Origin: Escherichia phage ALITA
Strand: one strand, 5' to 3'
Sequence record: PP359570
Length of the DNA stretch: 64,000 nucleotides
The number at the start of each line of letters is the position of its first letter. The first letter of the stretch is position 1. Both the position numbers and the translations under genes were made by a program. Below are positions 26-22,756 of this stretch, in pieces. The notes beneath the pieces are model-generated. The model was not told the origin of the DNA and did no database searches. It saw nothing but the letters and a program-made list of their open reading frames with translations.

Positions 26-54
26 TTGACTTTAGATCTATCTGTATGTAGAGT
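26..54 (+). promoter_or_regulatory. sigma70-like promoter (-35 TTGACT 26-31, -10 TAGAGT 49-54)
   Basis: Hexamers with 17-bp spacer upstream of the prs-like gene; member of a recurring TTGACA-N17/18-TAnAnT motif family in this window. Confidence 0.5.
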
Positions 55-93
55 AGAGAACATAAAGTCCTAACTCAACTAAGGAGATAAACA

Positions 94-987
94 ATGAAAG
101 TTAGTATTCTACATGGTGTTGACTGTTATGTTACTGATGTAGACGTTAAAGTCTTTACATTCTCTGGTGGAGAACAACATGTTCAACTAGACACGAATCT
201 ATCAGGTTTCAATCATGCTACAGACAGAATCTTACTCTCTTTAGAAGTAAGATCTGCTAAAGACTTGATGACTTTGGTTATGACTAAGAATGCATTGGAC
301 AATATGCTATATCATAAACCATATTGTGTTGATTTACTCATGTTGTATGTGCCGTATGCACGACAAGACAGAGTGTGTGAGCCTGGGGAAGCATTCGGAG
401 TTAAAGCCTTTGCTTCTATAATTAATTCATTAAATTTCTCACGTGTTATCGTTGCTGATCCACATAGTGATGTTACTCCGGCAGTGTTTGACAGACTCTG
501 TGTAATACCTCAAGAAGAGATTGCTTACGAAACTTTAAAGTGGAAGTTACGTATGGAGAATTTTGCTCTTGTTAGTCCTGATGGTGGTGCTCTTAAGAAA
601 ATATTTAAATTATCTAAGAAAATGTCTTTAGATGTGTTCTGTGCAGAGAAGGTTAGAGATACTGCAACAGGTGCTATTGTTCGTACAGACATTTCTGTAC
701 AGGATTTCAATAAGCGTAACCTGATGATCGTAGATGATATCTGTGACGGCGGTAGAACTTTTATTGAATTGGCTAAAGTGCTACGTGCTCGTAACGCAGG
801 TAAGATTGAGTTATATGTTACACACGGTATCTTTTCTAAAGGTCTTAAAGAGTTAAGTGAGCACTTTGACTGCATTCATTCTCTTAATGTGTGGGAAGAT
901 AACATCCAAGAAGATTCCGGTGTTCTTGTTAAGAATCAGTCAGATTTGCAACAACAAATTGTATCTCCATACGTGTGGAATTTTTAA
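94..987 (+). CDS. ribose-phosphate pyrophosphokinase (Prs)-like phosphoribosyltransferase-fold enzyme; possible ADP-ribose pyrophosphokinase of an NAD+ reconstitution pathway
   Basis: 297-aa ORF, SD aaggag 81-86 then ATG 94; PRPP-binding loop MIVDDICDGGRTF near C-terminus and Prs-like N-terminal half; directly followed by NAMPT-like gene. Confidence 0.8.
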   Translation: MKVSILHGVDCYVTDVDVKVFTFSGGEQHVQLDTNLSGFNHATDRILLSLEVRSAKDLMTLVMTKNALDNMLYHKPYCVDLLMLYVPYARQDRVCEPGEAFGVKAFASIINSLNFSRVIVADPHSDVTPAVFDRLCVIPQEEIAYETLKWKLRMENFALVSPDGGALKKIFKLSKKMSLDVFCAEKVRDTATGAIVRTDISVQDFNKRNLMIVDDICDGGRTFIELAKVLRARNAGKIELYVTHGIFSKGLKELSEHFDCIHSLNVWEDNIQEDSGVLVKNQSDLQQQIVSPYVWNF

Positions 988-997
988 ATAATAAGTG

Positions 998-1026
998 TTG
1001 ACAATAGGGAGTATGCTTAGTAAGAT
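998..1026 (+). promoter_or_regulatory. sigma70-like promoter (-35 TTGACA 998-1003, -10 TAAGAT 1021-1026)
   Basis: Consensus -35 with 17-bp spacer upstream of NAMPT-like gene. Confidence 0.5.
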
Positions 1027-1058
1027 ACTCCCACACTAACAAACAAGGAGACATAACT

Positions 1059-20689: not shown

Positions 20690-20708
20690 GTAATACGGAG
20701 GATTACCC

Positions 20709-22688
20709 TTGTTAGAAATTAACACTTCCAAGATTAAGAATACAGTAACGTTTACTGTAGATAAAGACAGTTTAAAAAATACTAAAGACGCAATTAAAAA
20801 CCTTAAAACTTTTACAGAATCTATTGAACCATCTTTAAATATGACTAAAATGCGTCGTCAGTTTAAAAGTATGGAAGAGTATGCTAAAAGAATAAGGCAG
20901 CAAATGTCAGGTCTTGGCGGCGGTAATCCTCCACCAATCCCACCAACCGGAGGTTCAAGTGGTGGTGGAAAAGGAGGAAGTGGTAGAGGTGGTTCTGGAT
21001 CTTCTGGAGGACGTAAGACACCGGAGGAAAGAGCCGCAGAAGCCGCCGCTAAACGCGCAGCACTTGCTAATATGAAGCAAGACGATTTTAGTTTTAAAGC
21101 TATGCCTTTTACAAAAGCAGACAGCAGAATTCTAGAAAAATCTAAAAAGATTGTAGAAGAAACTGTTGAACTTTATCGTAAAGGTGTGATTACTAGCCAA
21201 CAAATGAACAATACTTTGGCTAGACAGTTAGAAGAACTACGCAGATCTCATAGAGAGAAGAATGCACAACTTCTTGATGAAGAGAGAGCTAGACGTAGAA
21301 TTGCCCGTCTGCAAGAAGCAGAAGATAAAAGAAGACAGCGTGTTCGAGAAAGAGAAAGAAAGGAGTTCGAACGTCAGCAAAGGAGAGAAAAAGAAGCAAG
21401 ACAGCGAGATAGACAACGTAAGCTATCTGGTGTAGGTAATGCTGCTATTGCTCTTAACCCTGCTATGTTTGGTGTTGCTCTTTTAGGTGCTGGTTTATAC
21501 CAAGGTATAAGCAAAATCGCTGAAAGTATCGCAGCTTCGGCAGAACGTATTAATATGGTTAGTAGAGGTGGTCAGAACGTACAGGTAAACCCTAACGCAA
21601 TCCTAACAATGCGTACTTGGGGTGAGATGAACGGTGTAGACTCTGCTAGTATTATTAAAGCTATTGATAACATTAAAGACGTTCGTGAACGTTTAGGTAA
21701 TACTGTACTCCACTCTGAATTTGATGAAAAATCAGGTAAGTGGAAAGGTGGAGATAGTGGTATTAATGAAATCATGAACCAATTTGGTTGGTCGAAGGAA
21801 GATGTTGCTAAATTCCAGAACAGACCTTTAGACTTTGTTCAAGCACTTGTTAATGAAGGTCAAAAAAGAGGAATGAACTCTGCGCAAATTGGTCGTCTGA
21901 TGGAAAACCTTGGTGATGACTTAATGCACTACCAACGTATGTTTTTGGACAATGGTAAAGAGTTTATGGAAGTCCTGGGAATGTTAAGTAATTCAGGCGC
22001 AACTCTTAACGACGAAAACATCCAAGCAGCACAAGATTTTGTTAAATTAAGAGCAAAAATCGATGCAGCAGGAGAAGGTTTTACCAATAACTTACTTGTA
22101 GGGTTTATGGATGGTTTAAAATCTGCACCAGATTTTGCAGAAAATATGAAAACTTTCCAAGAAGCTGCTCGTGGTCTTGGTGAAATGTCTGGTAGTATTG
22201 TAAGTAGCCTTGCAAAAATTGCGAAATATTTCCTTGATTTTTCAAATAAGGTTGGGCCAAAAAACAATACTAAAGAAGCTGTAAGAGATTATTATAATGG
22301 TACGCAGTATGGGTACGATGCACAGGTTGGTGGTAATCCTTGGGCTTATTGGCCTATTGGAAGAGATCAACATCTGCCTGAAAATCAACCTTTAGGTAAT
22401 TTTGATAGTAGTTTCTTAACTAGTGCCTTAAATCCAAGTGCTTCTAGTATTGGTTACAATAGACCTGATTTAACAGCATCTATGCTAACACCACGCCAAG
22501 GTGTTCCAATACCGTTAAGTCTAGAGAATACGGTTGTTATCCCAGACAACGCATTCCAGATTAATGTTATTCCAGATGGTTATGGTTTTAGTAATTATCT
22601 AGATGCGACAATGAATACCAGTTTTAGTAACTTCTCACAAGGTTTAACTCTTCAGTTAAGCAGTGGACAATCTTCTACTGGTGGTTAA
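20709..22688 (+). CDS. tail tape measure protein
   Basis: 659-aa ORF (TTG start after SD acggagga); Gly-rich and Arg/Glu-rich helical segments, hydrophobic central region; position after chaperone. Confidence 0.7.
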   Translation: MLEINTSKIKNTVTFTVDKDSLKNTKDAIKNLKTFTESIEPSLNMTKMRRQFKSMEEYAKRIRQQMSGLGGGNPPPIPPTGGSSGGGKGGSGRGGSGSSGGRKTPEERAAEAAAKRAALANMKQDDFSFKAMPFTKADSRILEKSKKIVEETVELYRKGVITSQQMNNTLARQLEELRRSHREKNAQLLDEERARRRIARLQEAEDKRRQRVRERERKEFERQQRREKEARQRDRQRKLSGVGNAAIALNPAMFGVALLGAGLYQGISKIAESIAASAERINMVSRGGQNVQVNPNAILTMRTWGEMNGVDSASIIKAIDNIKDVRERLGNTVLHSEFDEKSGKWKGGDSGINEIMNQFGWSKEDVAKFQNRPLDFVQALVNEGQKRGMNSAQIGRLMENLGDDLMHYQRMFLDNGKEFMEVLGMLSNSGATLNDENIQAAQDFVKLRAKIDAAGEGFTNNLLVGFMDGLKSAPDFAENMKTFQEAARGLGEMSGSIVSSLAKIAKYFLDFSNKVGPKNNTKEAVRDYYNGTQYGYDAQVGGNPWAYWPIGRDQHLPENQPLGNFDSSFLTSALNPSASSIGYNRPDLTASMLTPRQGVPIPLSLENTVVIPDNAFQINVIPDGYGFSNYLDATMNTSFSNFSQGLTLQLSSGQSSTGG

Positions 22689-22693
22689 TGCAT

Positions 22694-22723
22694 AAAGCCT
22701 CGCTTCGGCGGGGCTTTTTATTT
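22694..22723 (+). terminator. rho-independent terminator
   Basis: AGCCTCGC-TTCG-GCGGGGCT hairpin followed by TTTTTATTT. Confidence 0.6.
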
Positions 22724-22726
22724 GTC

Positions 22727-22756
22727 TTGACAAAGAGTTGTTTTTCGTGATAAAAT
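22727..22756 (+). promoter_or_regulatory. sigma70-like promoter (-35 TTGACA 22727-22732, -10 TAAAAT 22751-22756)
   Basis: Consensus -35, 18-bp spacer, right after terminator. Confidence 0.5.

Follow-up and report, generated by a model that had tools for sequence, protein, structure and literature searches.

Phage T5 uses the host RNA polymerase throughout infection and has no polymerase of its own; its strong sigma70-type promoters have A/T-rich upstream sequences, many of them lie in a tRNA-rich region, and timing is provided by stepwise DNA entry and phage factors. The present analysis concerns a family of sigma70-type promoter motifs in a stretch of 64,000 nucleotides of Escherichia phage ALITA (PP359570), hereafter called the window, where such motifs precede nicotinamide adenine dinucleotide (NAD)-salvage, tRNA, and virion genes. 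In general layout only, the window resembles T5 in its strong sigma70-type promoters with A/T-rich upstream tracts and in its tRNA-rich region. Phage rV5 belongs to the same supergroup of large myophages and has the same gene order as the window. A set of 33 promoters resembling TTGACA-N15-18-TATAAT was predicted genome-wide in rV5, covering the tRNA region (PtRNA, P074, and P075) and virion genes (P036 and P051); an extended -10 element is present in 11 of the 33, and the authors concluded that re-targeting of the host polymerase may be unnecessary (Kropinski et al. 2013, Virol J 10:76; PMC3606486). An earlier examination of the ALITA letters (the sequence-only reading) had called host-type promoters in front of portal, head, and tail genes unexpected if late transcription depended on a phage-specific factor, which was overstated, since sigma70-like promoters had been predicted across rV5, including its late genes, and the same inference drawn (PMC3606486). 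The rV5-type structural promoters mostly have a weak -35 box (TTGCCA, TTGCAA, or TTGTAA) and were described as a separate 'late' motif, TggTAaAAtA, whereas the virion-gene promoters of the window have a perfect TTGACA and TGnTAAAAT is not enriched. The window very probably presents the Justusliebigvirus version of the rV5 picture, with stronger -35 boxes at the virion genes, and the promoter family would be real and not surprising to specialists.

Promoter early stem-loop (PeSL) cassettes are known from the T4-type phages RB49/phi1, PST, and nt-1 (Arbiol et al. 2010, PMC2839356; Comeau et al. 2014, PMC4122927). In them, a near-perfect sigma70 promoter with an A/T-rich tract upstream of its -35 box is combined with a stable stem-loop that contains G-T pairs, and a ribosome-binding site and start codon come next; the stem-loop lies upstream, over the -35 box, over the -10 box, between the boxes, or just downstream (PMC2839356). 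The window shares this geometry of promoter, A/T-rich tract, and stem-loop, and all five stem-loop positions were seen. PeSLs share a repeated stem (GGGG...CCCC), cluster in hyperplastic regions by orphan genes, and mediate indels; in contrast, the stems in the window all differ from one another, and several cassettes precede conserved core virion genes. As for indels, one of 127 bp relative to phage phi92 lies near 3876, and a recombinant junction between two cassettes was not seen.

Over positions 3-24000, the window shares 99.0% identity with Escherichia phage VEcB and 98.9% with phi92, two members of the genus Justusliebigvirus (Stephanstirmvirinae; phi92-like), a group of myophages of 145-149 kb. 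In the stretch of the phi92 GenBank record that matches these positions, ribosome-binding sites are annotated and promoters are not. The sequence-only reading had listed ten sites, at 26, 998, 3206, 3876, 4016, 5316, 10538, 12232, 16815, and 22727, as TTGACA with at most one mismatch followed after 17-18 bp by TAnAnT. All ten do have -35-like and -10-like hexamers 17-18 nt apart, on the coding strand and in gaps between genes or tRNAs. The exact motif was present at six of them (3876, 4016, 5316, 10538, 12232, and 22727). The other four deviate: 998 and 3206 have a perfect TTGACA with TAAGAT, in which position 4 is G and TAnAnT is not satisfied, 26 has one -35 mismatch (TTGACT), and 16815 has two (TTGCAA), beyond the one-mismatch limit, and scores only 10.5 bits. 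A perfect TTGACA occurs in 8 of the 10 sites, all with a 17-18 nt spacer and TAnnnT, and the bases T1, A2, and T6 of the -10 box stand at 17 or 18 nt in every one.

The strict motif TTGACA-N17/18-TAnAnT was found 10 times in the window, as against 0.96 +/- 1.2 in 100 shuffled sequences, none of which reached 10. A scan of the window with a log-odds matrix gave 12 hits of at least 14 bits (0.8 +/- 0.9 in shuffles) and 37 of at least 12 bits (9.9 +/- 2.6 in shuffles), and 12 of the 37 fell in co-oriented intergenic DNA, which makes up about 3% of the search space. At 10.5 bits, the level of 16815, the window had 101 hits compared with about 71 in shuffles. The word TTGACA is not itself over-represented (23 on the + strand, about 21 expected); nine of the 23 lie within the intergenic 6% of the window, and eight of those nine are followed by TAnnnT at 17-18 nt. 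The strong intergenic matches all face the coding direction. Sites that the sequence-only reading had missed were added at 2785, 7087, and 7516 on the + strand and at 48183, 51569, 58535, and 59884 on the - strand. Across the whole VEcB genome, 32 co-oriented sites between genes scored 12 bits or more; 8 of them lie in the stretch under study and 15 in a region of small genes at 136.8-145 kb, beyond the window.

Two features that played no part in site selection accompany the motifs. The TGn extension of the -10 box is present in six of the eight + strand sites with perfect TTGACA (3206, 3876, 4016, 5316, 10538, and 22727) and at 48183, and also at 2785, 7087, 7516, 51569, and 58535; it is absent at 26, 998, 12232, and 16815, in three of which TG directly abuts the hexamer. 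The 22 nt upstream of the -35 box have 80% A+T in the nine core promoters compared with 65% in intergenic 22-mers (P ~5e-5), a test of composition only.

Conservation was assessed in portal- and capsid-anchored IMG/VR loci and in annotated stretches of Phapecoctavirus nieznany (L029), a Vequintavirus, Seunavirus GAP31, and a Klebsiella relative. In every Stephanstirmvirinae relative, the terminase-portal, portal-protease, and tape measure-baseplate junctions hold a high-scoring promoter sequence, with changing spacers and flanks. The same three junctions carry promoters in the Vequintavirinae, with a weaker -35 box (TTGCCA, TTGCAA, TTGTAA, or TTGTTT) and a strong TGnTAAAAT. Within the Stephanstirmvirinae, the junctions before orf7106, orf7566, orf16858, tRNA-Ser, and tRNA-Gly are likewise kept. 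Motif, placement, and recurrence at the same junctions in other genera all support the earlier view of host-type promoters inside the structural module; these very probably stand before the portal, protease/scaffold/capsid, neck, and baseplate genes.

Taken together, the sites are likely to be functional promoters for the host RNA polymerase holoenzyme with sigma70; recognition and strength are predicted from motif anatomy, statistical excess, placement, and conservation. In each, a -35 box that matches or nearly matches the consensus would be separated by 17-18 nt from a -10 box with the critical T1, A2, and T6, mostly with TGn, and an A/T-rich upstream (UP)-element-like tract would be present where no terminator fills the upstream space. 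Such promoters would punctuate one co-directional block of 45 kb and re-start transcription at the boundaries of sub-operons, namely the two NAD-salvage genes, several small open reading frames (ORFs), three tRNA genes, the portal gene, the protease/scaffold/capsid group, and the baseplate/tail-fibre array.

Several points weigh against this assignment. The matrix was built from the consensus frequencies of classical E. coli compilations and is not a curated model. With a loose criterion of at least 9 of 12 consensus matches there is no excess over shuffles (65 vs 59.8, 70 vs 66.2, and 73 vs 59.4), and since the window has 62% A+T and this count is at the chance level, consensus-like pairs by themselves mean nothing; sites 16815, 7087, and 7516 are unremarkable by score alone. 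In 17 ortholog comparisons, identity was 97% in the -35 box, 79% in the -10 box, and 48-54% in flanks and spacers, figures that are partly circular, the orthologous promoters having been chosen with the same matrix. The literature searched contained no transcript 5' ends, in vitro transcription, or expression data for Stephanstirmvirinae or Vequintavirinae. Strong constitutive sigma70 promoters before virion genes would leave temporal control unexplained, and the VEcB annotation, in which about half of the genes are 'hypothetical', names no RNA polymerase, sigma factor, or anti-sigma factor.

The sequence-only reading had placed the promoters inside the structural module as well. Three strong sites (10538, 12232, and 22727) and one weak site (16815) do lie there, and six of the ten lie outside, at NAD-salvage and tRNA genes. 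The gene layout used here was taken from the VEcB and phi92 annotations, ARAGORN, and PHROGs, and features are on the + strand unless stated otherwise. The 45-kb rightward block opens with a divergent region, in which position 1 of the window falls. The spanin region (7775-8441) is followed by the terminase large subunit (from 8450), the portal (10632-12200), and the prohead protease (12297-12776, PHROG 3017), and then, in order, by scaffold, decoration protein, major capsid protein (14327), and neck genes; further on come the sheath (17944), the tube, the tape measure (20709), and baseplate and tail-fibre genes (22804 to ~45600). Leftward genes for replication, glycosyltransferases, and endolysin occupy ~45600 to 64000.

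The putative portal promoter, TTGACA-18-(TGt)TAAAGT at 10538-10567 (14.2 bits), starts 3 nt beyond the stop codon of the terminase gene and was kept in 12 IMG/VR relatives and nieznany, and with TTGCCA in a Vequintavirus. A stem-loop at 10579-10600, TCTACCCC-TTCAAT-GGGGTAGA (folding free energy, dG, -14.1; z -3.6), would cover about +6 to +27 of the predicted portal transcript. No consensus fold of the terminase-portal leader was obtained, the alignment being too divergent; per-sequence folds revealed a hairpin at this position in 9 of 9 relatives, including the Vequintavirus, with at least five different stems and z from -3.2 to -5.7. It may act either as a 5' stabiliser or as a terminase terminator placed after the promoter.

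The next candidate, TTGACA-17-TAGACT at 12232-12260 (14.2 bits; upstream tract 91% A+T), precedes the prohead protease, scaffold, decoration, and major capsid genes. It was kept in all relatives, its form in the Vequintavirinae being TTGCAA-17-(TGn)TAAAAT. An 18-bp stem-loop with four G-U pairs (12241-12282; dG -17.7, z -3.5) carries the -10 box at its apex, and TTTGTTTTTAT comes after it. In 9 sequences all 15 consensus pairs held, with G-U/A-U switches and one two-sided change, and this element is probably a portal terminator that overlaps the next promoter. In the RefSeq records of VEcB and nieznany, the gene at 12297-12776 is named 'DNA methyltransferase'. The PHROG matches of its product are head-maturation proteases, the name given in GAP31 and a Vequintavirus is XkdF-like or serine protease, and the methyltransferase name is probably an annotation error.

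The weak candidate TTGCAA-17-TATACT at 16815-16843 (10.5 bits) lies before a minor head/neck gene (16858-17274), and its predicted start coincides with the ribosome-binding site. Its junction is nearly invariant in nieznany and in relatives L021 and L022, although the flanking proteins are 66-68% identical. After the tape-measure gene, a predicted intrinsic terminator (22694-22717; 10-bp stem, dG -14.9, then a T run) stands directly upstream of the promoter sequence TTGACA-18-(TGa)TAAAAT at 22727-22756 (15.1 bits), which would head the baseplate/tail-fibre array of about 23 kb; no further strong intergenic promoter was found in the ~23 kb downstream. This module of terminator and promoter was kept in L029, L021, and L022, and in L030 and L032 with weaker -35 boxes. 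A further stem-loop at 22759-22785 (dG -10.8; region z -2.9) would form the 5' end of the predicted transcript (-4 to +23); hairpins of other sequence are present there in L029 and L022 and not in L021, L030, or L032.

At the left end, the divergent region holds TTGACT-17-TAGAGT at 26-54 (12.9 bits), with 95% A+T in the 22 nt upstream, before the first of two NAD-salvage genes (94-2792), a ribose-phosphate pyrophosphokinase gene (94-987; name from PHROG 619). The second, for nicotinamide phosphoribosyltransferase (NAMPT; 1059-2792), is preceded by TTGACA-17-TAAGAT at 998-1026 (12.9 bits), where an 8-bp stem, GGGAGTAT/ATACTCCC, spans the spacer and -10 box (dG -10.7); in relative L028 a promoter sequence also stands before a NAMPT gene whose product is 40% identical. 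At the 3' end of the NAMPT gene and before orf 2864-3085 lies TTGACT-17-(TGa)TAAGAT at 2785-2813 (13.6 bits). Its -10 box and leader are enclosed by an inverted repeat at 2800-2807/2851-2858 (CTTCGTGA...TCACGAAG; z -3.5). The promoter was kept in nieznany (L029:392), where the repeat arms are altered (CCTTCG...CGAAGG). The repeat at 2800-2858 also encloses a 43-nt insert with a small hairpin of its own. The sequence TTGACA-18-(TGc)TAAGAT at 3206-3235 (13.6 bits; upstream tract 86% A+T) precedes orf 3266-3532, tRNA-Met, and tRNA-Leu.

The tRNA cluster (3540-6648) contains 15 tRNA genes, or 16 with an additional one at 3916-3994, mixed with small ORFs and an HNH endonuclease gene. The strongest candidate of all, TTGACA-17-(TGt)TATAGT at 3876-3904 (16.7 bits; upstream tract 95% A+T), has its predicted start about 5 nt before this additional tRNA gene, which is absent from the ARAGORN list and scored 38.6 bits with the Rfam tRNA model against a gathering score of 29. 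By eye, its D-arm region is very short and its variable region long. Two similar arrangements were found, TTGACA-18-(TGt)TAGATT at 4016-4045 (14.2 bits), with a predicted start about 9 nt before tRNA-Ser (4061-4150), and TTGACA-18-(TGt)TAGAGT at 5316-5345 (14.8 bits), with a predicted start about 5 nt before tRNA-Gly (5357-5431). Orthologous promoters of the former were located at L029:1536 and L022:545, and promoters before tRNA-Gly also at L029:2505 and L022:1558; at 5316 a stem, AGCCTC.../...GGGGCT, overlaps the -35 box (dG -10.8). From the -10 boxes ending at 3904, 4045, and 5345 it is 11-15 nt to the tRNA genes, so that the predicted leaders are only 5-9 nt long. With its own strong promoter sequence, A/T-rich upstream tract, and very short predicted leader, each of the tRNAs at 3916, 4061, and 5357 resembles the E. 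coli stable-RNA promoters with UP elements known in general.

Compared with phi92, a 127-bp segment at 3740-3866, which holds a sequence like the 3' half of a tRNA, is present only in the window, and a replaced segment at 5539-6014 carries the HNH endonuclease gene (5648-6013) within the cluster. One end of the 127-bp indel is 9 nt upstream of the -35 box at 3876; recombination from cassette to cassette was rejected as the origin of the indel, as only this end lies near a promoter. An intergenic TTGACA at 6464 lacks a usable -10 box, and behind it, at 6490-6566, lies a weak, sub-threshold match to a tRNA (22 bits); 6464-6566 may be a decayed unit of promoter and tRNA.

Two weaker candidates follow terminators. 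TTTACA-17-(TGt)TATCCT at 7087-7115 (11.3 bits) lies after a terminator at 7040-7064 and before orf 7106-7426, and TTGACT, TTGACA, or TTTACA promoters with differing spacers occupy this junction in L029, L022, and L021. TTGCTT-18-(TGa)TATGAT at 7516-7545 (9.4 bits), with a weak -35 box and an extended -10 box, lies after a terminator and before orf 7566-7739, an architecture also kept in L021, L029, and L022.

The leftward block has candidates of the same kind on the - strand. TTGACA-18-(TGt)TATTAT at 48154-48183 (14.2 bits) lies among the replication genes. TTTACA-17-(TGg)TACAGT at 51541-51569 (12.1 bits) follows a terminator, precedes the DNA polymerase gene, and has a 9-bp inverted repeat that brackets its -10 box. 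TTGCAA-17-(TGt)TACAAT at 58507-58535 (12.8 bits) likewise follows a terminator and precedes the endolysin gene of the VEcB annotation, and TTGACT-16-TAAAAT at 59857-59884 (11.8 bits) is a promoter-like sequence in the gap 59820-59891.

Stem-loops with a dG of -5 or lower abut or overlap 10-11 of 17 promoters, five of them with z below -2. They stand upstream as ordinary predicted terminators at 22727, 7087, 7516, 51569, and 58535, overlap the -35 box at 5316 and 3206 and the -10 box at 998, 12232, and 2785, and lie at the predicted transcript 5' end at 10538 and 22727. The units may be composite cassettes that stop an incoming transcript and start a new one, and the 5' hairpins would probably stabilise the new mRNA. 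The VEcB region at 136.8-145 kb (L034 ~25400-33600, outside the window) contains 15 near-consensus promoters with a 16-17 nt spacer and few TGn. At least 11 of these early-region promoters are followed, at about +5, by a shared GC stem-loop, GGGCGGGAAATGGTTTCCCGCC, an A-rich sequence, a ribosome-binding site, and a small gene without known function. Because the GGGCGGGAAATGGTTTCCCGCC stems are followed by an A-rich sequence and a ribosome-binding site, a role as 5' stabiliser is favoured over termination for the downstream hairpins. This early region constitutes a repeated cassette of PeSL-like form in a phage outside the T4 type.

A wider proposal, which we regard as tentative and doubtful, is that Stephanstirmvirinae and Vequintavirinae express their virion genes from consensus sigma70 promoters without a phage sigma factor or polymerase, with timing and dosage set after initiation by promoter-fused stem-loops; a PeSL-like system would then have spread beyond orphan early genes to core late ones. 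Its parts would possibly be overlaps of terminator or attenuator with promoter, such as 12241-12282, and 5' hairpins that vary in sequence and are conserved in position, such as 10579-10600, perhaps coupled to an undiscovered antiterminator or RNA-stability factor.

The promoters could also be real and yet be served late in infection by a phage-modified polymerase, for example one with sigma region 4 blocked, as by AsiA of T4, so that only TGn promoters stay active, timing comes from the extended -10 box, and the -35 box matters only early. This is unlikely. TGn is indeed frequent in the window, the Vequintavirinae structural orthologues combine a degenerate -35 box with a strong TGnTAAAAT, the presumed early-region promoters of VEcB form a distinct class by their 16-17 nt spacer, scarce TGn, and conserved 5' GC stem-loop, and there are many small early genes without known function. 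However, the structural promoters keep a perfect TTGACA, conserved at 97%, which would not be expected of a dispensable -35 box. The promoters before the DNA polymerase, endolysin, and virion genes look alike, so that replication and structural genes have no distinguishing class signature. An AsiA- or MotA-like gene is not annotated, and a candidate anti-sigma protein, the 'Srd-like' gp11 of rV5, was rejected, as tblastn found no homologue in VEcB (best E 0.65).

A separate class of late promoters was rejected as well, since neither of two known motifs is enriched in the window. The gp55-dependent late motif of T4-type phages, TATAAATA, occurred 8 times (6.5 expected), and its single coding-strand copy in the structural block lies within a gene. 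The rV5 'late' motif TGnTAAAAT occurred 12 times (7.4 +/- 2.9 expected), and its only intergenic and co-oriented copy in the structural block, at 22748, is part of the 22727 promoter. The suggestion of the sequence-only reading that the sites are targets of a phage regulator found no positive evidence, as no shared operator-like motif was detected among the promoters. Inverted repeats around the -10 box were rejected as a shared operator; their excess (z 3.7) was driven by three promoters (998, 12232, and 51569). Because their arms differ between promoters and their G-U pairs point to RNA, these repeats are better read as overlapping stem-loops.

Alternatively, the stem-loops at 10579-10600, 12241-12282, and 22759-22785 might be attenuators behind constitutive promoters, with most transcripts ending within about 40 nt and virion genes expressed only once a phage antiterminator appears, as in the PR'-tR' system of lambda with Q. 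The window resembles PR'-tR', as generally known, in layout only, with a strong sigma70-type promoter before late genes and a hairpin close behind; it differs in that no Q-like gene is annotated, no conserved element lies between the -35 box and the -10 box, and U-tracts are poor. A hairpin follows the terminase-portal promoter in 9 of 9 relatives whatever its sequence, and the rV5 authors listed the equivalent hairpin as terminator t064ABC (PMC3606486); the 12232 hairpin runs into TTTGTTTTTAT, and in reporter assays the PeSL stem-loops of T4-type phages act as terminators (PMC2839356). Even so, attenuation at these sites is very unlikely. In several relatives the 10579 hairpin has a poor U-tract behind it or none, and the 12241-12282 hairpin cannot form in transcripts from 12232, because its left arm is upstream of the start. 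The early 5' stem-loops of VEcB precede an A-rich sequence and a ribosome-binding site and not U-tracts, which points to 5' stabilisers as the general design.

That the matches are functionless chance products of A/T-rich intergenic DNA (65% A+T) is scarcely credible and is already contradicted by the conservation data: the count at 9 of 12 matches does equal the shuffled expectation and several equally good matches lie antisense within genes, but strong matches are in at least ten-fold excess, those between genes are all on the coding strand together with TGn and UP-like tracts, and they recur at corresponding junctions in other genera and subfamilies despite changing spacers, whereas antisense matches are lost.

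Phi92-like and rV5-like phages are widely isolated and used in therapeutic cocktails, and no transcription map was found in the literature searched. A verified map of promoters and terminators would show annotators where operons start and would give engineers strong, compact, host-recognised promoter cassettes. It would also frame the question of how a virulent phage of 148 kb without a recognisable transcription factor delays the expression of its virion genes, if it does so at all.

Further matches were found within genes. Exact TTGACA-N17-TAnAnT motifs lie antisense to virion genes at 18357-18385, 28611-28639, and 42745-42773 (all - strand), and the one at 42773 points into a terminator at 42710-42727. 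The antisense matches at 18385 and 19747 (- strand) were rejected as promoters, as they are lost in relatives. Two co-oriented matches within genes, TTGACT-18-(TGg)TACAAT at 28246-28275 (14.5 bits) and TTGACT-17-(TGt)TAAACT at 35614-35642 (14.2 bits), are intact in nieznany; as promoters for tail-fibre or baseplate genes they were rejected, their conservation being no better than that of the coding context. Just inside the 5' end of ORF 54050-54985 there is a co-oriented TTGACA-17-TATAGT on the - strand (54941-54969; 14.8 bits), and either it is an internal promoter or the true start codon of this ORF is further downstream. Relatives retain the GC hairpins before the tube gene (19359-19376) and before a chaperone gene (19892-19911), and neither hairpin is followed by a recognisable promoter. 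Since the former lacks a clear U-tract, it may be an element of RNA processing or stability rather than a terminator.

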